A stretch of 54,749 nucleotides of DNA from NCBI GenBank assembly GCA_021296025.1, contig JAGWBF010000003.1, forward strand, positions 1 through 54,749, given 5' to 3'. Shown here one piece after another: positions 16,069-51,529 of this stretch. Position numbers and translations under genes: made by a program. Source of the stretch: Dehalococcoidia bacterium. Its GTDB lineage: Bacteria > Chloroflexota > Dehalococcoidia > Lucifugimonadales > JAGWBF01. The notes beneath the pieces were generated by a model. It saw only the letters and a program-made list of their open reading frames with translations, was not told the DNA's origin and ran no database searches. Within the stretch, counting starts at the first letter, position 1, and the number at the start of each line of letters is the position of its first letter.

Positions 16069-16307
16069 TACGCCACATCTCCAGCGTGGGATAGATTCAC
16101 CCAGTTATCACCTTGGTCGCAACCGGCCTTTTCCAGTATATCAGAGCCAGGGTTGCCCTTTCATCCCGCCCCACGGGCGGGAGAGTTCCGAAGAGAATGA
16201 TGGACCGGATGAAATATAGCTTTTCCTGTCGTCATGGGGGAGAATATGACAATCGGCCGTACTTCATTCTTAGCCGCCCTCATGATGATAAAGCGAGAGG
16301 TGCATCC

Positions 16308-18350
16308 ATGCCCAACCATCTCATCAACGAGACCAGTCCATACCTGCTCCAGCACGCCAACAACCCGGTGGACTGGTACCCCTGGGGTGAGGAAGCCCTC
16401 TCCAAGGCCCAGGGGGAGGACAAGCCCATCCTCCTGAGCATCGGGTATTCAGCCTGCCACTGGTGCCACGTCATGGAGCGGGAATCCTTCGAAGACCCCG
16501 GCATCGCGCGGATAATGAACGAGAACTACGTGTGCATCAAGGTTGACCGGGAAGAGAGGCCGGACCTCGACAGCATATACATGAACGCTGTCCAGGCCCT
16601 TACCGGCGGCGGTGGCTGGCCTATGACCGTGTTTCTCACCCCCGATGCCCGTCCCTTCTATGGAGGCAACTACTTCCCACCCGAGGACCGGGGAGGCATG
16701 GTCGGGTTTCCCAAACTGTTGGCGCGGGTCGCCGAAGCCTTCAGGAGCAGGCGGGGAGAGGTTGTGCAGACCACCAACGAGCTGCTGAACCACATTCAGC
16801 CCTCTCCTCCAGCCCGGAGCGCCGACCCCTTGAGCTCCGAGGTCCTGCACGATGCCATGGCCACCCTGGTGCAAGGGTTCGATTTCGACAACGGAGGCTT
16901 TGGCTCCGCTCCCAAGTTTCCACAGCCAATGATCTACGAGTTCCTGCTCAACTATCACCACATCAACAAGGACCCCTTCGCTCTGCAGATGGTGGAGATG
17001 TCGGCGGAGAGGATGGGGCGCGGCGGGATGTACGACCAGATCGGCGGGGGCTTCCACAGGTACTCGACCGATGCCCACTGGCTGGTGCCCCACTTCGAGA
17101 AGATGCTCTACGACAACGCCCTGCTCAGCAGGCTTTACCTGCACCTCTTCCAGGCAACGGGCAACGGCTGGTACCAGCGCATCGCCGAGGAGACCCTGGA
17201 CTATGTGCTGCGGGAGATGACTGACCCGGCTGGAGGCTTCTACTCCACCCAGGACGCCGACAGCGAGGGGGTGGAGGGCAAGTTCTTCGTCTGGTCAATA
17301 GACGAGATTGCAGGCTTGCTGGGGCCGGTCGACGGGCCCATCGTGGCGGGTTACCTGGGGGCCTCCGAGGCCGGTAACTTCGAGGGGCGCAACATCTTTC
17401 ACCTTCCCGAGGCGACTGGACCGTACGCCGAGAAACACGGGCTGTCCATAGAAGAGCTAATAGATAAGGTGCAGCAGGGAAAGGCCTCTCTCCTGGAGGA
17501 GCGGGAGACCCGCATCCATCCCGCCCGGGACGAGAAAGTGCTCACTGCATGGAACGGACTGATGATCCGCAGCTTCGCCGAAGCCGCCTCAATTCTGGGG
17601 CGAGACGACTACAGGCAGGCAGCTCTGAACAGCGCGACCTTCATTCTGGACAATCTCCGGAAGGACGGCCGCCTCCTCCGCACCTACAAGGATGGCCAGG
17701 CGAAGCTGAACGGCTATCTTGAGGACTACGCCTGCATGGCCCATGGTCTGTTGGCCCTGTACGAGGCAACCTTCGACGCCCGATGGTTCGATGAAGCCAA
17801 CGCCCTTGGGAGGGACATGGTAGACCTGTTCTGGGATGAGGCCCAGGGCATCTTCTATGACACCAGCCGGGACCATGAAGCCCTGGTGGTGCGCCCCCGG
17901 GACTTCTTCGACAATGCGACGCCATGCGGAGGCTCGGTAGCTACCGGGGTCCTTCTTCAGCTGGGGGTATTGACCGGGGATGGTGAATACTCCCGGCGAG
18001 CATCGGCCGCCATGCACGCAGTCCAGCAGCACTTGGCGCGAATCGCTCAAGGGATGGGACGCTGGCTGGCCAACGTGTGCTTCTACACCTCGGCCCCCAA
18101 GGAGATCGCCATCATCGGCGACCCATCGTCGGCGGACACTCAGGCCCTGATGAGGGAGGTCTACCAGCGCTACCTTCCTAACAAGGTTGTGGCCGGCGCC
18201 GGTGCCCCCGTGGCCGACGACCACGCTACGCCCCTGCTCCAGGAGCGGGGGATGATCGACGGCAAGCCCACGGCTTACGTCTGCGAGAACTACTCCTGCC
18301 AGCTTCCTGTAACAACCCCCGAGGAGCTGGCCTCCCAGCTGGAGCAGTAG
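16308..18350 (+). CDS. Thioredoxin-domain protein (DUF255 / YyaL / SPATA20-like, N-terminal Trx fold plus six-hairpin glycosidase-like domain)
   Basis: [24 protein letters not shown]...[18 protein letters not shown] is the DUF255 signature. I chose the ATG at 16308. The upstream part of the track ORF lies in the divergent intergenic region. Confidence 0.85.
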
Positions 18351-44090: not shown

Positions 44091-45149
44091 ATGCCTGTCA
44101 TCGATTTGCGAAGCGACACCGTTACCAAGCCCACTGAGGAGATGAGGGCCGCTATGGCCCAAGCTGAGGTGGGCGACGACGTTATGGGGGAAGACCCTAC
44201 TGTCAACCGGCTGGAGCAGATGGCGGCTGAACTTCTGGGCAAAGAGGCGGGCCTGCTGACCTCCAGCGGCACCATGAGCAACCTGATCGCTGCCCTGTCC
44301 CACTGCAGACGCGGCGACGAGGTGATCATGGGCAGCGAGGGACACATGTTTTGGAATGAAGTAGCAGGGGCTGCCACCCTGGCCGCGGTGCAGGTGCGCA
44401 CCGTGCCCAATGATTCTCAAGGGCGCATGGACCCGGGCGATGTGGAGGCGTCCATCAGGCCCCCGGGCAACATCCACTTTCCCAGGACTTCCCTACTCTG
44501 CCTTGAAAACACCCACAATCGGTGCAACGGGGGAGTCCTCACTCCCGAGGACACCCGCAGCGTGTCCGAGGTCGCCCACGCCAACGGCGTGGCGGTCCAC
44601 CTGGACGGCGCGCGGGTGTTCAACGCCGCCGTGGCCCTGGAGGTCCCTGCCAAAGATCTGGTGGCCGATGTGGACGATGTGTCCTTCTGCCTGTCCAAGG
44701 GGCTGAGCGCTCCGGTGGGCTCCGTCCTGTGCGGCAGCCAGGAGTTCGTGGAGCAGGCCCGCAAGTGGCGCAAGATGCTGGGCGGCGGGATGCGCCAGGC
44801 CGGGGTGATTGCAGCAGCGGGCGTTGTAGCGCTGGAAACGATGGTCGATCGCCTGGCCGAAGACCACTCCAATGCCAGCCGCTTGGCCTCGGGGTTGTCC
44901 CAAGTCCCCGGAATACGCCTGGACCCAGGATCCTTCCAGACCAACATTGTATTCCTGGAGCTGGAGGCGGAGCTGGGGAGCGTCCATGAGTTCATATCCC
45001 GCCTCAACCAGCATGGCCTGAAGGTGTCCTATCCGGGTGGGCGCCGGATCCGGCTGGTAACCCACCGTCACATAAGCCCGGGGGATGTAGAACAGGCTGT
45101 GGATATTGTCGCCAAGGTCGCCAGGGAGCAGCGTAAGCCGGCGGCTTAG
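44091..45149 (+). CDS. ltaE: Low-specificity L-threonine aldolase (beta-eliminating lyase family)
   Basis: IDLRSDTVTKPTEEMRAAMAQAEVGDDVMGEDPTVNRLE. GGAGG RBS before the ATG at 44091. The PLP-lysine region is FCLSKGLSAPVGS. Confidence 0.88.
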   Translation: MPVIDLRSDTVTKPTEEMRAAMAQAEVGDDVMGEDPTVNRLEQMAAELLGKEAGLLTSSGTMSNLIAALSHCRRGDEVIMGSEGHMFWNEVAGAATLAAVQVRTVPNDSQGRMDPGDVEASIRPPGNIHFPRTSLLCLENTHNRCNGGVLTPEDTRSVSEVAHANGVAVHLDGARVFNAAVALEVPAKDLVADVDDVSFCLSKGLSAPVGSVLCGSQEFVEQARKWRKMLGGGMRQAGVIAAAGVVALETMVDRLAEDHSNASRLASGLSQVPGIRLDPGSFQTNIVFLELEAELGSVHEFISRLNQHGLKVSYPGGRRIRLVTHRHISPGDVEQAVDIVAKVAREQRKPAA

Positions 45150-45185
45150 CAAAGGCCTGCAATCATATCGCCGACCGATAACCAT

Positions 45186-45216
45186 TTGCGTGCACAGCAT
45201 CAGGATGGCATATAAT
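45186..45216 (+). promoter_or_regulatory. Candidate sigma70-type promoter for the Rieske ferredoxin gene
   Basis: TTGCGT (45186-45191), a 19-nt spacer, then TATAAT (45211-45216), ~55 nt upstream of the ATG. The spacer is longer than optimal. Confidence 0.3.
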
Positions 45217-45272
45217 ACGGGGCGTTCGCTCTGCAAGGAGATACTCAAAACCAAGATTCTGGAGGAGACAGC

Positions 45273-45590
45273 ATGCCCGCAGACTTCGTGAAGGTGGCCC
45301 AGACTTCGGACCTGGCTCCGGGGCAGATGAAGCAGGTGCAGGCCGGTGATGAGCTGATCCTGCTGATTAACCTCGACGGGGAGTACTTCGCCATGGATGA
45401 CATCTGCTCCCATGCCTATGCCCCCCTGACCCAGGGCGACCTGAACGGCGAAGAGGTGGAGTGCCCGCTGCATGGCAGCGCCTTCAACGTGAAGACCGGG
45501 GAGGTGCTGTGTCCCCCCGCCAACCAGTCCCTCGAGACCTTTGCGGTGCGCATAGAAGGGGACGACATCCTCGTCGGCCCCAAGGGCTGA
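45273..45590 (+). CDS. Rieske [2Fe-2S] ferredoxin (non-heme iron oxygenase ferredoxin component-like)
   Basis: 105 aa with CSHAYAPL...CPLHGSAF (CxH...CxxH). GGAGGAG RBS. Confidence 0.88.
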   Translation: MPADFVKVAQTSDLAPGQMKQVQAGDELILLINLDGEYFAMDDICSHAYAPLTQGDLNGEEVECPLHGSAFNVKTGEVLCPPANQSLETFAVRIEGDDILVGPKG

Positions 45591-45637
45591 AACTATGGGC
45601 ATAGCCTCGTCCCGATGAGGGGGCGCCCATTTGGGGA

Positions 45638-46375
45638 TCACCGGCCCCTGGTGTCTCCCCACAGGTAGATGTGCAGACGGGGGCTGAACCGCAGGTTTTC
45701 GTTCACGCAAAGCTGGCTCAGCCAGTCGCTCCGCTCCTGCAGCACCGAAGAGGTGCGCCCCTCGGGGGAAAGGAGCACCCGCTCCCTGGAAAGAGACATT
45801 TCATCCATAAGCCTGCGGACCTCTTCCACGTCCGATTCCCTCGTAACCACGAACTTGAAATAGGCCTGCGAGATAGCTGCGAAGGACTTTAGCGCCTCCG
45901 GGACATAGCGTTCCTCCGACGTATTCCCCGACGTGTCAAGCTTGGGAGAGACGTTCCACTGATCGATAAGCGCACCCATTTCAGGCGTGGGCGCGATGGT
46001 GCCGTTGGTCTCCACCTCGAAGGTGAATCCCCGGCCCTTAAGCGATCGGACCAGCCCAGCCATCTGGTCCTGCTGCAACATCGGCTCTCCCCCGGTGATG
46101 ACAAGATGGGAACAGCCGTATTGCAGCACCTCGTTTTCGACGTGTTCTGGCGAGAGTTCCACAACCTCTTTTTGGAAATCGTAGTTCTTCCAGTCCCAGG
46201 TGTACTTGGTGTCGCACCAGGTGCAGGCCAGGTTGCACTGGGCCAGCCTCAGAAACACCGCTGGTGTCCCCGCCATCGTACCTTCGCCCTGAAGGGTGTG
46301 AAATATCTCCGGCCTGCCTTCGGGTCGACAGCTTACTTTCAACAACGTTTCCGAAGGGTGGGAATCCGTATTCAC
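45638..46375 (-). CDS. queE: 7-carboxy-7-deazaguanine synthase (radical SAM)
   Basis: TLQGEG...CNLACTWCDTKYTW cluster motif. Last gene of the que operon. Confidence 0.88.
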   Translation of the reverse strand: MNTDSHPSETLLKVSCRPEGRPEIFHTLQGEGTMAGTPAVFLRLAQCNLACTWCDTKYTWDWKNYDFQKEVVELSPEHVENEVLQYGCSHLVITGGEPMLQQDQMAGLVRSLKGRGFTFEVETNGTIAPTPEMGALIDQWNVSPKLDTSGNTSEERYVPEALKSFAAISQAYFKFVVTRESDVEEVRRLMDEMSLSRERVLLSPEGRTSSVLQERSDWLSQLCVNENLRFSPRLHIYLWGDTRGR

Positions 46376-47571: not shown

Positions 47572-48015
47572 TCAAGAGGGCAAGCCCTCTCCTGGGTACG
47601 TGGCGGTAACGACTGTGTGCAACCCTCCCCGGACCTTGTAGTCCAGCACTACCTCCATGCAGCGGGGCTTGCACGCACCCACCAAGTCGTCCAGGATACG
47701 ATTGGCGGCGCTTTCCTGCACGATCCCCACATCCCGATAGGACAACAGGTAGTACTTTAGGGACTTTAGCTCGATGCACAGCTCGTGAGGCTCGTAGGTA
47801 ATGCTCAGCGTGCCGTAGTCGGGAAGGCCCGTCCAGGGGCACACGGCGGTGAATTCGTCGGTGTCTATGCGAACTGTGGACTCTCCACAAGAAGGCTCGT
47901 AGTCAAAGGACATAATGATGGCGCTGTCGATGGACGCCTCCGGTCCATCCTGTATGAGCCTGTCCAGGTTCTCGTAGCGTTCCTTCAGCGATTCTATAGA
48001 TGCCATGTCCGCCAC
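47572..48015 (-). CDS. queF: NADPH-dependent 7-cyano-7-deazaguanine reductase (unimodular type)
   Basis: 147 aa with the catalytic Cys context FTAVCPWTGLPDYG and the IELKSLKYYL motif. GTG at 48015 or ATG at 48006. Confidence 0.88.
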   Translation of the reverse strand: MADMASIESLKERYENLDRLIQDGPEASIDSAIIMSFDYEPSCGESTVRIDTDEFTAVCPWTGLPDYGTLSITYEPHELCIELKSLKYYLLSYRDVGIVQESAANRILDDLVGACKPRCMEVVLDYKVRGGLHTVVTATYPGEGLPS

Positions 48016-48092: not shown

Positions 48093-48121
48093 ATGATAGG
48101 TTATGCCAAATGAGGTGTCAA
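48093..48121 (-). promoter_or_regulatory. Sigma70-like promoter of the queFDCE operon
   Basis: The minus strand reads TTGACA (48121-48116), a 17-nt spacer, then TATCAT (48098-48093). This leaves a ~70-nt leader before queF. Confidence 0.5.
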
Positions 48122-48149
48122 AACCCCTGTGTGGCTCCCTCTATCTCCC

Positions 48150-48178
48150 TTGTCATTCCTAGGGCCCTGGGGTATCCT
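48150..48178 (+). promoter_or_regulatory. Weak candidate promoter for the divergent FTR-like operon
   Basis: TTGTCA (48150-48155), a 17-nt spacer, then TATCCT (48173-48178). If used, the first gene must start downstream of 48178, for example at TTG 48232. Confidence 0.25.
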
Positions 48179-48621
48179 TGTTGTATCTGGCAGATACGGG
48201 AGGGCCCCTGGCCCAAACGGGGGAAAAGGCGTTGAAAGACCAAGCCCCAAACGGCGCAGCGGCCGAGACCGAACTGCTCCAATCTCCGGCAGAGCTGGAG
48301 GAGATACAGGAGCTTTTGAAAGAGGCGGTAGCTTCGGAGCCCTCCCTTCGCCTGTTGCCCAAATTCGGCATGGCGCGGGCCGGCAGTCCCGACTTCCACA
48401 GGACCTACTTTGCTATCCACTGCACCTGTGGGACGGCGGGTCTTGTTTGTATAGAAACAGCCAAGTCCAAGACCCTGTCCCAAGTTGAGGATGCGCTGCC
48501 TTCCCTGAAGCAGCACCTGGTGGGCAGGGCCAAGCAGTTTGCAAGCATGCCATGCTCAATGCACACCAGCATGCGCTCTGCGGGCATCCAGGCTTCAATG
48601 CCAGGAAGTGGGGGAGGCTGA
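48178..48621 (+). CDS. Uncharacterised protein, first gene of the FTR-like operon (start uncertain)
   Basis: 147-aa ORF with a coding-like helical acidic segment (ELLQSPAELEEIQELLKEAV), then a Cys/His cluster (HCTCGTAGLVC ... MPC). I recognise no family. Its TGA at 48619-48621 is 1 nt from the ATG of the next gene, and the RBS of that gene lies inside this ORF. Confidence 0.45.
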   Translation: MLYLADTGGPLAQTGEKALKDQAPNGAAAETELLQSPAELEEIQELLKEAVASEPSLRLLPKFGMARAGSPDFHRTYFAIHCTCGTAGLVCIETAKSKTLSQVEDALPSLKQHLVGRAKQFASMPCSMHTSMRSAGIQASMPGSGGG

Positions 48622-48622
48622 T

Positions 48623-49039
48623 ATGGCGAAGGAACTGGACCAGGACAAGGCGATGGAAGGCACCATCCGCTTCTCGGAAAAGTACGTCGAGAAGAGCGGG
48701 TACAAGTTCTTTCCCGACCAGGAGGTGGTGCGCCTAGTACAGGAGGGCCTGGCCCGCAACCAAGTGGAGTACGGCTACCGCTACTGCCCTTGAATGCCCC
48801 TCAGCGGCGATCCCGTCGAGGACCGCAAAAAGATTTGCCCCTGCGACCGGCACCATGAGGATATAGAGAGGGACGGGTTCTGTATCTGAATGTTCTTTGT
48901 CAGCGAAGAGTTTCTTCGCCAACAGGAACAGGGTAGTGAGATCGAACAGACCATTGGCGATGCAGTCCAGCCCGGCGAGGGCCTGTTTGACCAACCATAT
49001 AAATCGAAGGCAGACCAGAAGGGGAGTCAGAGTACTTAG
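48623..49039 (+). CDS. Ferredoxin:thioredoxin reductase catalytic-subunit (FTR-beta) homolog with two in-frame TGA codons (48791-48793, 48887-48889); candidate double-selenocysteine protein (U57, U89)
   Basis: GGGGGAGG RBS 6 nt before ATG 48623. Read-through translation: MAKELDQDKAMEGTIRFSEKYVEKSGYKFFPDQEVVRLVQEGLARNQVEYGYRYCP-U-MPLSGDPVEDRKKICPCDRHHEDIERDGFCI-U-MFFVSEEFLRQQ...ST*. It aligns with cyanobacterial FtrC (...YAKRTDTYFCSD..VVIEGLARHKEELGSPLCPCRHY...WNCPCVPMRERKECHCMLFL). The CPC/CPC/CHC pattern becomes CPU/CPC/CIU. All three pieces are in one frame. Confidence 0.7.
48799..48821 (+). promoter_or_regulatory. SECIS-like hairpin after the first UGA of the FTR-like gene
   Basis: CCUC-A-GCGG-[CGAUC]-CCGU-C-GAGG: two 4-bp helices around an A/C mismatch, beginning 5 nt after the UGA. 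This is the weakest of the four hairpins. Confidence 0.3.
48903..48919 (+). promoter_or_regulatory. SECIS-like hairpin after the second UGA of the FTR-like gene
   Basis: GCGAAG-AGUUU-CUUCGC: a perfect 6-bp stem (7 bp with the A-U closing pair, leaving a GUU loop), beginning 13 nt after the UGA. Confidence 0.45.
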
Positions 49040-49054
49040 AGGAGCTGAGAAGCT

Positions 49055-49291
49055 GTGAGCATAACCGTTTACACATCCGTTGGTTGAGGCCCCTGCCACA
49101 TGGTGAAAGTGTACCTTTCACAAAAGGGGTTGGAGTTTACCGAACGGAACGTTTCACTGGACGAAAACGCAAGGGATGACCTGCTATCCCTGGGATATCG
49201 CAGCACACCCGTGACTGTGATAGACGACCAGAAGGTCGTCGGGTACAGCCCTCCCAAGCTGGAAGAAGCCCTGCAAGCGGCCGGGATCTAG
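49055..49291 (+). CDS. Glutaredoxin/NrdH-like small redoxin with an in-frame TGA at 49085-49087; candidate selenoprotein with a U-G-P-C active site
   Basis: GAGGAG RBS 10 nt before GTG 49055. Translation: MSITVYTSVG-U-GPCHMVKVYLSQKGLEFTERNVSLDENARDDLLSLGYRSTPVTVIDDQKVVGYSPPKLEEALQAAGI. The track ORF (49100..49291) starts after the active site and lacks beta-1 and the CxxC loop. Reading through the TGA restores a complete Grx fold with the Sec at the first CxxC position. Confidence 0.7.
49103..49121 (+). promoter_or_regulatory. SECIS-like hairpin after the UGA of the redoxin gene
   Basis: GUGAAAG-[UGUAC]-CUUUCAC: a perfect 7-bp stem with GU in the loop, beginning 15 nt after the UGA. Confidence 0.45.
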
Positions 49292-49328: not shown

Positions 49329-49352
49329 GCTCCTCCGCTTATACAGAGGAGC
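49329..49352. terminator. Candidate bidirectional hairpin between convergent genes
   Basis: GCUCCUC-(10 nt)-GAGGAGC in the 107-nt gap between the redoxin gene (+) and the carbamoyltransferase-like gene (-). There is no clear U-tract. Confidence 0.25.
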
Positions 49353-49398: not shown

Positions 49399-50301
49399 TT
49401 ACTTGCCCAGCAGCTTCATCAAGAGGGCCATCCTGACGTACAAGCCGTTCTCTGCCTGACGATAGCCGGCCCATCGAGGATCGCTGGTCTCCTCGATGAT
49501 CAGATCGCTGCGCTGCATTGGGTCGAGGATGACGCATCCCGGCTTCAGGGCCGCCAGCAGGTCTCTATCGACCTTGGCTTCCACAATGTTCCGGCTCCTC
49601 ACCAACTCCGCGTGGCCCGGCGTGCCAGCCCCGTTAACGTACACCGCATCCAGTGACCCGGCCAGCTCTGCCAGTGACGTACCCTGGGTGAAGGAGATTC
49701 CGGCACTGGTGCAGTAATCTATCGTGTCCTGATCGGCCTGTCCGGTTACGGGCACCAAGTGCACGCTGACGTTGTCGTACATTGCCAGGGCCGTCAGCAG
49801 GGCGTTTACGTTTCGATGATCTAGCCGGCCCAGGAAAGAGATGTTAAGCCCATCTATGCCGCCCAGCTCCCGATTGAGGGTGTACAGGTCCAGGAGCGCC
49901 TGGGTCGGGTGGTCTTCGGGGCTTCCTCCGTTGATGACCGCCAGCCCCCCGGCCTCGGCGGCTTGCTCCGCAGCCCCGGGCTGCTGCGACCTTAATACAA
50001 CAACATCGAAATGCAGGCTTTCCAAGAACCTCATGGTGTTCTCAATGAAGGTGGTTGTCCTGACCGGGAAGAACTGGGATGCATCTTCTGTGTGCTGAGC
50101 ATCGCCCCCGAGGAGGGCCATCGCCCGCTCGAAGGACGCCCGGGTGAGGAAGCTGGGTTCGTAGAACAGGCAGTATAGTGACCGGCCTTGCAGGGCCTGT
50201 TCCACAGGAGCGCCATCTCGAATTCGATCGCACAAAGGAAATAGCTCGCCTTCAATCCATTGGCGCTCCAGGTCCCTGGTCCGTATTAGGTGATTCGACA
50301 C
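49399..50301 (-). CDS. Aspartate/ornithine carbamoyltransferase-family protein with non-canonical active-site motifs
   Basis: 300 aa with the ATCase/OTCase fold. HPTQALLD is retained, but the carbamoyl-phosphate motif S-T-R-T-R reads S-F-L-T-R (YEPSFLTRASFE). The C-terminal H-P-x-P reads L-D-P-M. Confidence 0.7.
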   Translation of the reverse strand: MSNHLIRTRDLERQWIEGELFPLCDRIRDGAPVEQALQGRSLYCLFYEPSFLTRASFERAMALLGGDAQHTEDASQFFPVRTTTFIENTMRFLESLHFDVVVLRSQQPGAAEQAAEAGGLAVINGGSPEDHPTQALLDLYTLNRELGGIDGLNISFLGRLDHRNVNALLTALAMYDNVSVHLVPVTGQADQDTIDYCTSAGISFTQGTSLAELAGSLDAVYVNGAGTPGHAELVRSRNIVEAKVDRDLLAALKPGCVILDPMQRSDLIIEETSDPRWAGYRQAENGLYVRMALLMKLLGK

Positions 50302-50494: not shown

Positions 50495-51529
50495 TTGGAC
50501 AACATACTGGTCACCGGTGGTGCAGGATTCCTTGGGATGACCCTTGTGAAGAGCCTGGTGGGCTTCGGGGTGCGCCCGCGGGTGCTCGATATCAACCGTC
50601 CCGGGGACCCTGAGCTGGAGTCCAAAATGGAGTTCATCCGGGGGGACATCCGCAATCCCGACACCGTCCACCGGGTTGTTCGGGGGATGGATATAGTGTT
50701 TCATCTGGCCGCCGCCGTGCTGCCCACCAGAGGGAAGCGGGCGTACACATCCACCAACACCGAGGGCACGAGGAACCTGCTCCAAGCCTCCCTCGACCAT
50801 AACGTGAGACAGGTTGTCCACGTATCCACCAGCGCCATTTACGGAATACCCCAGGAGCTGCCGGTCACCGAGGAGTCCGAGCTTCGTCCCATGGGTTACT
50901 ATGGGAACGCCAAGTACCAGGGCGAGCTGCTGGTAAAGAGGTACCGCAACAGGGGCCTCAGGGTGTGTGTCCTGAGGCCACGGACCATCATCGGCACCGA
51001 ACGCCTGGGGATATTCCACATCCTCTTCGACTGGATCAAAGAAGGCAAAAAGGTCCCGATAATCGGCAAAGGGGACAACCTGTTCCAGTTTGTGAGCGCC
51101 CGCGACTGTGTGACAGCCTGCTACAAGGCAGTAGATGCCCGCAGCAATGACGACTTCAACCTAGGCGCGGAGGAGTTTTCCACGGTAAAGGCGGACCTCG
51201 AGGGCCTAACCGCCTATGCCGGCACAGGGTCCCGCGTTGCCCCAATACCTGCGCCACTGGTATAGGCCCCTCTCCAGTTTCTGGATACCCTCAGGCTTTC
51301 ACCACTCATGGACTGGCAGTACAAGGTGGCCGACAAGCCCTTCTACTTTGATATCACCAAGGCCAAGACGGACCTAGGCTGGCAGCCCAAGGACAGCAAC
51401 CTCAGCATGTTCATCGACTCCTACGACTGGTACACCAACTACTACGTCGATTCTGCCGAAGCCTATGGGTCTACTCACCGCAAGGCCGTGCGTCAGCGAT
51501 TTCTCCGTCTCCTCAAGGCTGTATTCTAA
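50495..51529 (+). pseudogene. NAD-dependent epimerase/dehydratase interrupted by a single in-frame TAG (51263-51265)
   Basis: ORF 50495..51265 (TTG start, AAGGAG RBS, ILVTGGAGFLG) and ORF 51308..51529 are in the same frame. Read-through gives ...VAPIPAPLV-*-APLQFLDTLRLSPLMDWQYKVADKPFYFDITKAKTDLGWQP..., which is the normal C-terminal region of this family. Confidence 0.6.

Follow-up and report, generated by a model that had tools for sequence, protein, structure and literature searches.

A double-selenocysteine FtrB reductase, a selenocysteine redoxin and a small Cys3-His protein as a probable redox module in Dehalococcoidia

Introduction

To our knowledge, enzymes of the ferredoxin-thioredoxin reductase (FTR) type are the only thioredoxin-reducing enzymes that split a disulfide via an iron-sulfur cluster, one electron at a time. 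Here we describe three adjacent genes (gene 1, gene 2 and gene 3; together the trio) that probably encode a selenium-containing system of this type. They lie at positions 48178-49291 of a 54,749-nt stretch of Dehalococcoidia bacterium DNA (assembly GCA_021296025.1, contig JAGWBF010000003.1, positions 1 to 54,749), the whole of which we refer to as the window and which matches metagenome-assembled genomes of Dehalococcoidia most closely.

Classical FTR is a heterodimer of a catalytic chain (FTRC) and a variable chain (FTRV; 1DJ7, 2PU9, 7BZK), whereas in FDR of Methanosarcina acetivorans (4TPU) the FTR-like catalytic domain is fused to a rubredoxin domain. Both enzymes use an active-site [4Fe-4S] cluster (PMC7278568). 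An FTR homologue with two selenocysteines (Sec), both matching the two redox-active cysteines, was first reported in 2008 from a marine read of the Global Ocean Sampling survey (Zhang & Gladyshev 2008; PMC2398784). This double-Sec family is listed in selenoprotein reviews and has a curated NCBIfam model, NF041072 ("FtrB family double-selenoprotein"). We found no study of this diselenide version of FTR, although it has been in selenoprotein catalogues since 2008, and the papers we consulted on double-Sec FtrB list the enzyme alone, mentioning neither gene 1 nor a fixed Sec-redoxin partner.

Gene 2 is a member of the NF041072 family, with both Sec at the positions of the redox-active cysteines, the four cluster-ligand cysteines kept, and a hairpin resembling a selenocysteine insertion sequence (SECIS) past each UGA. 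With classical FTR it shares the catalytic fold family PF02943 and the arrangement C-P-C ... C-P-C ... C-x-C, and the trio likewise has an adjacent thioredoxin-fold acceptor and a small second protein encoded alongside. In contrast to classical FTR, gene 2 carries Sec for both redox-active cysteines, Ile for the His of C-H-C, and an extra C-terminal tail of ~45 residues. Moreover, the trio has no variable chain, the helix/three-strand/two-helix model of gene 1 matched no PDB chain, the acceptor is a glutaredoxin-like Sec protein rather than thioredoxin, and the host appears to be a non-photosynthetic heterotroph.

FDR, the best solved match of gene 2, likewise pairs an FTR-like catalytic domain with an additional metal-binding element in an organism that is not photosynthetic. 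However, FDR has Cys and a fused rubredoxin domain, whereas the trio has a Sec-Sec pair, no fused domain, and a separate upstream-encoded protein with C-x-C and C-x-x-H motifs. Gene 3 combines a glutaredoxin fold with U-x-x-C, as listed for selenoprotein Grx and Trx (PMC9312934); it differs from the NrdH, YruB and Uxx-star redoxins in scoring below their curated cut-offs, and from the Sec Grx/Trx redoxins in its apparent coupling to an FTR-like reductase instead of glutathione or a flavoprotein reductase. Thus, gene 2 on its own is not new, having been reported in 2008 and curated in NCBIfam; it is a known selenoenzyme in an undescribed three-part system. Neither the fixed three-gene module, nor a gene 1 family with a Cys3-His signature, nor an association with glycine reductase (grd) genes was found in the literature searched, and searches on an FTR-like/rubredoxin/Chloroflexi connection and on SAR202 selenoproteins returned nothing relevant.

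Three co-oriented genes conserved as a unit

The trio is encoded on the plus strand, with all genes co-oriented and packed closely:

48178..48621, plus strand: gene 1, TTG start, 147 aa, stop TGA; alternative in-frame TTG start at 48232
48623..49039, plus strand: gene 2, ATG start, TAG stop, in-frame TGA at 48791-48793 and 48887-48889
49055..49291, plus strand: gene 3, GTG start, TAG stop, in-frame TGA at 49085-49087

These coordinates bear out the same-strand, three-gene arrangement of the original prediction, which was made from the letters of the window alone: 1 nt lies between the stop of gene 1 and the start of gene 2, and the gap from gene 2 to gene 3 measures 15 nt. Shine-Dalgarno-like sequences can be read 5' of gene 2 (GGGGGAGG at 48610-48617) and 5' of gene 3 (AGGAG at 49040-49044), which together with the close gene spacing is consistent with co-translation of the trio.

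Conservation was analyzed in 85 related loci, made up of five related genomes (L001-L005) and 80 metagenome loci (L006-L085, from freshwater or marine samples) kept from 305 confirmed in a contig scan for gene 2 relatives that allowed X at the Sec sites. By tblastn, gene 1 was detected in 73/85 and gene 3 in 66/85 of these loci. A stricter count, based on profile searches reading through TGA, covered those 42 loci that offer no less than 500 nt of upstream and 700 nt of downstream sequence; among them gene 1 is found in 39, gene 3 in 36 and both in 35, with the same order and strand in 31. The distance from the end of gene 1 to the start of gene 2 is usually some tens of nucleotides, compared to 1 nt in the window. 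The commonest true neighbour family other than the trio itself occurs in 12 loci, and the largest other neighbour clusters (67, 16 and 10 loci) are open reading frames (ORFs) in other frames, mostly overlapping gene 2.

The surroundings of the trio are far more variable. The que genes and the carbamoyltransferase gene that flank it in the window accompany it in near relatives only, and one 3.7-Mb genome carries the trio between unrelated genes, with different flanks. In L004, queF and gene 1 are ~2.9 kb apart compared to ~0.15-0.2 kb in other loci, and the trio is still together. A survey of neighbourhood conservation, proposed along with the original prediction as a check, thus shows a trio that is kept far beyond close relatives while its flanks change. 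We consider it probable, at roughly 0.6, that the trio is a single co-expressed redox module, known to date from Dehalococcoidia/Chloroflexota, that constitutes an FTR/FDR-type iron-sulfur disulfide (here diselenide) reductase system. Gene 1 would probably act in this one disulfide-reducing system as a partner protein that we found described nowhere.

Gene 2 and gene 3 resemble an FTR-type reductase and its redoxin

Gene 2 reached 226 bits against NF041072 (cut-off 160), covering model positions 1-121 of 121, and E=3.7e-26 (91.7 bits) against Pfam FeThRed_B (PF02943). Its best relative in the PDB is 4TPU (E=5.8e-15, residues 15-107), followed by 7PWE and then by plant and cyanobacterial FTR catalytic chains, i.e., gene 2 is closer in sequence to archaeal FDR than to plant/cyanobacterial FTR. 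A rubredoxin Pfam match was not found in gene 2. The motif order is C55-P-U57 ... C72-P-C74 ... C87-I-U89. In alignments with FTR/FDR chains, the two UGA sites correspond to the second Cys in the first C-P-C motif and to the final Cys in C-x-C, while C55, C72, C74 and C87 line up with the remaining cysteines. The same pattern of two UGA codons and four retained cysteines recurs in 85/85 relatives. Cys55, Cys72, Cys74 and Cys87 are therefore predicted to be the [4Fe-4S] ligands, and Sec57-Sec89 the redox-active pair.

In Synechocystis FTR, the cluster ligands are reportedly Cys55, 74, 76 and 85 and the redox pair Cys57-Cys87 (Dai et al.); the equivalent redox pair of gene 2 would be Sec-Sec. 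The C-terminal extension of ~45 residues is specific to the double-Sec family and conserved, and it contains no Cys. Two short Cys-type relatives of gene 2 that we examined have neither this tail nor gene 1.

Gene 3 matches Pfam Glutaredoxin (PF00462) with E=3.6e-14 and 53.1 bits, compared to a cut-off of 22.9, and its active site, U11-G-P-C14, lies near the N-terminus. U-[GS]-P-C is present in 66/66 gene 3 relatives. Although it resembles the YruB and NrdH redoxins, gene 3 stays below the NCBIfam cut-offs for YruB (72.8 bits; 88.55), NrdH (60.4; 85.75) and Uxx_star (43.1; 66). Judged from its sequence, gene 3 is a glutaredoxin-fold NrdH/YruB-like redoxin and as such a known kind of Sec-redoxin.

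The assignments of gene 2 as an FTR-like Sec reductase and of gene 3 as a Sec-redoxin, which had been proposed without database searches, hold in the light of these matches. The same is true of the placement of the two gene 2 selenocysteines on the redox-active pair, on which the FTR alignments and the 2008 report (PMC2398784) agree, and of the claim that three of the four redox-active positions are Sec.

In-frame UGA codons are followed by conserved SECIS-like hairpins

The in-frame UGA codons of genes 2 and 3 and the hairpins associated with them are as follows:

48791..48793, plus strand: UGA for Sec57 of gene 2 (C-P-U), TGA in 85/85 relatives
48807..48826, plus strand: SECIS-like hairpin 1 (GCGAUCC-CGUCGA-GGACCGC), 16 nt past the U of UGA 48791
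48887..48889, plus strand: UGA for Sec89 of gene 2 (C-I-U), TGA in 85/85 relatives
48903..48919, plus strand: SECIS-like hairpin 2 (GCGAAGA-GUU-UCUUCGC), 16 nt past UGA 48887, outer stem to ~48891-48930
49085..49087, plus strand: UGA for Sec11 of gene 3, TGA in 66/66 loci where gene 3 was found
49103..49121, plus strand: SECIS-like hairpin 3 (GUGAAAG-UGUAC-CUUUCAC), 18 nt past UGA 49085

The reading frames 3' of the UGAs stay conserved down to 59% identity, and each UGA has its hairpin at a fixed distance, 16-19 nt further on. Synonymous codon choice within the hairpins is strongly restricted. In hairpin 1, stem codons +5, +6 and +9 to +11 show a synonymous-codon entropy of 0.11-0.69 bits (68 unique sequences), whereas loop codons +7 and +8 are free (1.6-1.8 bits); in the clade of the window this stem contains an A-C mismatch. 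Codons +5 to +10 of hairpin 2 (AGC GAA GAG UUU CUU CGC) have an entropy of 0-0.44 bits (65 unique sequences), and the stem codons of hairpin 3 (GUG AAA GUG ... CUU UCA) one of 0-0.25 bits (49 unique sequences). Elsewhere in genes 2 and 3, codons of conserved residues mostly vary (~0.8-2.4 bits). The frozen synonymous sites in the stems indicate that an RNA structure is overlaid on the coding sequence, which fits a bacterial SECIS, and nothing in the trio region reached the Rfam gathering threshold. TGA also ends gene 1 as an ordinary stop, arguing against a general recoding of UGA. Based on the conserved UGAs and the SECIS-like hairpin that belongs to each, the three UGAs of the trio are predicted to be read as selenocysteine. 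Gene callers split genes 2 and 3 at the UGAs or translate UGA as Trp.

Gene 1 defines a small protein family without known relatives

While genes 2 and 3 belong to recognizable families, gene 1 had been described as an ORF that could not be assigned to any family, and it remained so in all our searches. Among 76 members, only noise was obtained against Pfam at E<=1; there was no match to NCBIfam, and a profile sequence search against the PDB returned none at E<=10. An AlphaFold2 model of the part encoded at 48232-48618, based on 76 sequences (pLDDT 83.7, pTM 0.72), consists of one helix, three strands and two long helices. Foldseek found no structural match for it in the PDB (best E=0.19), even though the release contains FTR heterodimer entries such as 1DJ7, indicating that the gene 1 fold is neither that of the FTR variable chain nor that of rubredoxin.

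We accordingly rejected, on fold topology and zero matches, the idea that gene 1 is a diverged FTR variable chain or a duplicate of the FTR catalytic chain. Weak similarities to a ribosome hibernation factor (S30AE; Foldseek E 0.3-1.5, and 5/76 members with Pfam E>=0.056) were judged to be noise, which probably stems from the small alpha/beta fold. The source names of the homologues are all "hypothetical protein" from Dehalococcoidia or Chloroflexota, except for one JGI label, "tRNA C12 N-acetylase TAN1", that no search backs and that we dismissed.

A first search returned 15 close homologues and no more. The family is small: clustering at 90% left 139 proteins, and at 50% identity there were 78 clusters among 1.84 billion representatives; 44 gene 1 groups lie below 80% identity, and many loci are near variants of each other. 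Members are ~100-150 aa long and essentially never fused with another domain; none is fused to a DNA-binding or sensor domain. Comparison of the window with L001-L005 gave a dN/dS of 0.12-0.27, with dS up to ~2.5. This indicates purifying selection on the protein and hence a real gene, so that the first ORF passes the check for coding signature and conservation that had been suggested along with the original prediction. Nevertheless, gene 1 evolves faster than gene 2, with 65-81% vs 91-96% identity in close relatives.

Two alignments, A5 (34 sequences) and A6 (76 sequences), were used to define invariant positions. C82, C84, E93, C126 and H129 are invariant in both, as is L110 or L114 depending on the alignment, and F121 is invariant in one of the two. 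The Cys and His residues form two motifs:

48421..48429, plus strand: C82-x-C84 of gene 1, invariant in A5 and A6
48553..48564, plus strand: C126-x-x-H129 of gene 1, invariant in A5 and A6

The cluster HCTCG...C...MPC that had been picked out from the single sequence is thus confirmed in part: C82, C84 and C126 are invariant, whereas H81 and C90 vary across the family, and the invariant H129 had not been listed. In the model, the C-x-C sits in a beta-hairpin turn, with strands 55-63 and 69-77 flanking C64 and C66 (model numbering), and the C-x-x-H lies at the N-terminus of the last helix (108-122, model numbering). The secondary structure fits a treble clef or zinc knuckle, but the knuckle is C-x-C and not C-x-x-C. 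On the basis of the model, C-x-C and C-x-x-H may come together as one treble-clef-like metal site.

The conserved part of gene 1 begins at ~residue 37 of the 147-aa frame with either start codon. Most relatives start with a Met whose codon is CTG in the window. Since, in addition, the -10 element of a promoter-like match (see below) ends at 48178, the in-frame TTG at 48232 is favoured, suggesting that it is the true gene 1 start; this promoter, if used, would begin transcription past the TTG at 48178.

Proposed electron relay and the role of gene 1

The analogy of FTR and FDR suggests a possible electron path. A low-potential one-electron donor, either ferredoxin or a similar carrier, would reduce the gene 2 cluster, which in turn would reduce the Sec57-Sec89 diselenide one electron at a time in two steps, the way FTR operates. 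After this, Sec57 would attack the selenylsulfide of oxidised gene 3, and reduced gene 3 would hand the electrons on to target proteins. Gene 1 may be an obligate partner subunit of gene 2, in the place taken by the variable chain in FTR or the rubredoxin domain in FDR, with its C-x-C and C-x-x-H residues binding a metal that would be either structural (zinc) or electron-carrying. We favour the partner role because no other neighbour is linked to gene 2 as faithfully as gene 1, because the gene 1 stop usually lies shortly before the gene 2 start, and because the double-Sec family has a ~45-residue tail, while tail and gene 1 are both missing from the two short Cys-type relatives. Ferredoxin as the donor and gene 1 as the "electron-input subunit" of the original prediction are suggested by the same analogy.

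One variant of gene 2 (L088:397-1350) combines a Cys at the first of the two sites with a TGA at the second. Its 2.9-kb contig contains neither gene 1 nor gene 3; further downstream, the opposite strand carries two small desulforedoxin-like ORFs (CxxC...CC). As a single case, such a C/U variant beside two desulforedoxin-like ORFs instead of gene 1 only hints at an electron-carrier reading of gene 1.

A possible acceptor is indicated by 9/85 loci (L018, L022, L033, L039, L041, L042, L048, L051 and L052; e.g., L033:1941-3886), in which gene 2 has grdC and/or grdA no more than ~3.5 kb away. In L033, L039, L041 and L042, grdA ends 16 nt before gene 2 (ftrB). The GrdA proteins of the grd-linked loci match Pfam GRDA (2.7e-52), have an in-frame TGA in C-F-V-U, and comprise three clearly divergent versions plus one close variant (71-99% identity). 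Clostridial grd operons embed thioredoxin reductase and thioredoxin genes, and in the nine loci the trio appears beside grdC and/or grdA in the place of such a reductant system; by contrast, its reductase would be an iron-sulfur selenoenzyme and not a flavoprotein, and neither the window nor most of the loci show this association. Glycine reductase depends on a reductant of the thioredoxin type, and its genes are known from Dehalococcoidia (PMC9751293). Given this dependence and the grd-adjacent loci, the module could supply selenoprotein A in those organisms, and selenoprotein A of glycine/betaine reductase is a likely target in some lineages.

Points against a single module and alternative explanations

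Several observations weigh against one conserved diselenide-reductase module with gene 1 as partner. Gene 2 has C-I-U in place of the FTR C-H-C, in the window and in almost all related loci. As the original prediction had noted, neither annotation nor the scanned flanking ORFs revealed a ferredoxin, thioredoxin reductase or FTR variable-chain gene adjacent to the trio, and the FTR variable-chain family was matched neither by gene 1 nor by these ORFs; the nearest Fe-S protein found is a two-cluster 4Fe-4S-domain ORF in the NADH dehydrogenase (complex I) operon, 12 kb off. No grdA or grdC match was obtained by tblastn in the whole 54.7 kb of the window. There is no tRNA-Sec in the window, and no Sec-synthesis gene was matched among the 43 larger window ORFs scanned with Pfam, a scan that left out about ten ORFs at 23.8-32.1 kb. 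The linkage also has exceptions: in L044, the 4 kb around gene 2 contain no gene 1 and no gene 3, L071 lacks gene 1, one lineage (L048, L051 and L052) as well as L081 has no nearby gene 3, and a few loci encode gene 1 on the opposite strand. Finally, all named members come from one phylum, so that shared descent, not selection, may account for part of the synteny.

The strongest challenge to gene 1 as a subunit or electron carrier is that it might be a substrate, regulator, assembly factor or selenium-handling helper of the FtrB/redoxin pair, with its C-x-C and C-x-x-H thiols, for example, being reduced themselves or sensing the redox state. In that case gene 2 would make up the enzyme by itself, possibly as a homodimer as in archaeal FDR, and would work together with gene 3. 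FDR (4TPU), the nearest solved relative of gene 2, indeed works without a separate small subunit, and is reportedly a homodimer according to Kumar et al. 2015. Cys-type FTR-like genes in other organisms adjoin a redoxin or stand alone, in either case without gene 1, and neither the Cys-type relatives P0028 and P0029 nor the C/U variant P0025 has gene 1 in its context, although these are very few cases. The inversions of gene 1, its absence from L044 and L071 and its faster divergence point the same way. However, gene 1 is linked to gene 2 more faithfully than the redoxin is (39 vs 36 of 42 loci), its end usually lies tens of nucleotides before the gene 2 start, a pattern typical of stoichiometric partners, and fusions to a DNA-binding or sensor domain do not occur in the family. 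We therefore regard a helper role as rather unlikely.

It is more improbable still that the module is a dedicated reductant of glycine/sarcosine/betaine reductase, replacing the NADPH-thioredoxin reductase and thioredoxin of clostridial grd operons, instead of a general disulfide reductase. The nine grd-linked loci with their divergent GrdA versions fit such a role, as does the requirement of glycine reductase, an enzyme encoded in Dehalococcoidia, for a thioredoxin-type donor (PMC9751293). A precedent for a Sec-redoxin reducing a Sec-protein comes from Clostridium, where a glutaredoxin that is itself a selenoprotein is adapted to selenoprotein MsrA (Kim et al. 2011, listed in PMC9312934). The remaining 76 loci, the window's 54.7 kb included, gave no grdC or grdA match.

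We attach very little weight to the view that the UGAs are true stops in decayed gene fragments, or are recoded to another amino acid, so that there would be no selenoprotein module. The behaviour of gene callers, which split the trio genes or read Trp, the lack of tRNA-Sec and Sec-synthesis matches described above, and the modest minimum free energy z-scores of the single-sequence hairpin folds (-0.7 to -1.9) would be in line with it. Against this, TGA falls exactly at the catalytic positions in every gene 2 and gene 3 copy, the frame beyond it is conserved, each UGA is followed at a constant spacing by a hairpin with frozen synonymous sites, TGA is an ordinary stop nearby, at the end of gene 1, and the FtrB family is curated as a selenoprotein (NF041072; PMC2398784).

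A further extension of the module with gene 1 as partner is speculative, and we doubt that it holds in full. Gene 1 would represent a new class of small Cys3-His metalloprotein that binds an iron or iron-sulfur centre and forms an obligate heterodimer with double-Sec FtrB as its built-in electron-entry subunit. With the Sec-redoxin, it would make up a very low-potential, selenium-based reductant line in marine and freshwater Dehalococcoidia, feeding selenoprotein A of glycine/betaine reductase and other targets in place of NADPH-thioredoxin reductase. The lineages with such a line may possibly include SAR202-type ones.

Our analysis indicates that double-Sec FtrB does not stand alone but travels with a Sec-redoxin and an unannotated, structurally unmatched Cys3-His small protein. 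An 18-year-old catalogue entry thereby becomes a defined three-protein system that is open to direct expression and testing. Gene 1 suggests what the missing partner of a non-photosynthetic FTR may look like, the grd-linked loci offer a candidate physiological acceptor, and the trio is a natural case for asking why selenium occupies three of the four positions of a thiol relay. As automatic annotation fragments genes 2 and 3, the module is invisible in most annotations of metagenome-assembled genomes.

Promoter-like sequences and flanking genes

The following features surround the trio:

45638-46375, minus strand: radical-SAM ORF, taken as queE
47572-48015, minus strand: queF, divergent from the trio, followed by queD, queC and the radical-SAM ORF
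48121-48093, minus strand: stronger promoter-like match facing queF and the que operon (TTGACA-17-TATCAT, 11/12 positions)
48150..48178, plus strand: sigma-70-like promoter match facing gene 1 (TTGTCA-17 nt-TATCCT, 9/12 positions, consensus match only)
49329..49352, strand not assigned: inverted repeat GCTCCTC-N10-GAGGAGC with 7-bp arms and a 10-nt loop, between the convergent gene 3 and carbamoyltransferase-like gene
49399-50301, minus strand: carbamoyltransferase-like gene, converging on gene 3

These positions agree with the earlier description of the trio as divergent from the que operon and bounded downstream by a convergent gene. The two promoter-like matches are arranged back to back across the queF/gene 1 intergenic region (48093-48178). 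Downstream of gene 3, the inverted repeat lacks a T run and was not reported by a terminator scan; it is a weak candidate for the end of the transcription unit, possibly acting as a two-way transcription stop.

Further observations concern other parts of the window. A 405-aa ORF (44493-45710, minus strand), flanked by a hydrolase gene and the queE-like ORF, matches nothing in Pfam at E<=1e-5 and overlaps the start of the radical-SAM ORF by ~70 nt; it may be spurious or mis-started. At 16113-18350 (plus strand), another redox protein is encoded, a large thioredoxin-domain protein (745 aa) of the DUF255/DsbH type. The gene for a NAD-dependent epimerase/dehydratase (50495-51529, plus strand) contains an in-frame TAG at 51263-51265, a site that is Lys in three relatives (L001, L002 and L008), and the conserved frame runs 87 codons further; this TAG is a nonsense mutation (pseudogene) or a sequencing error.

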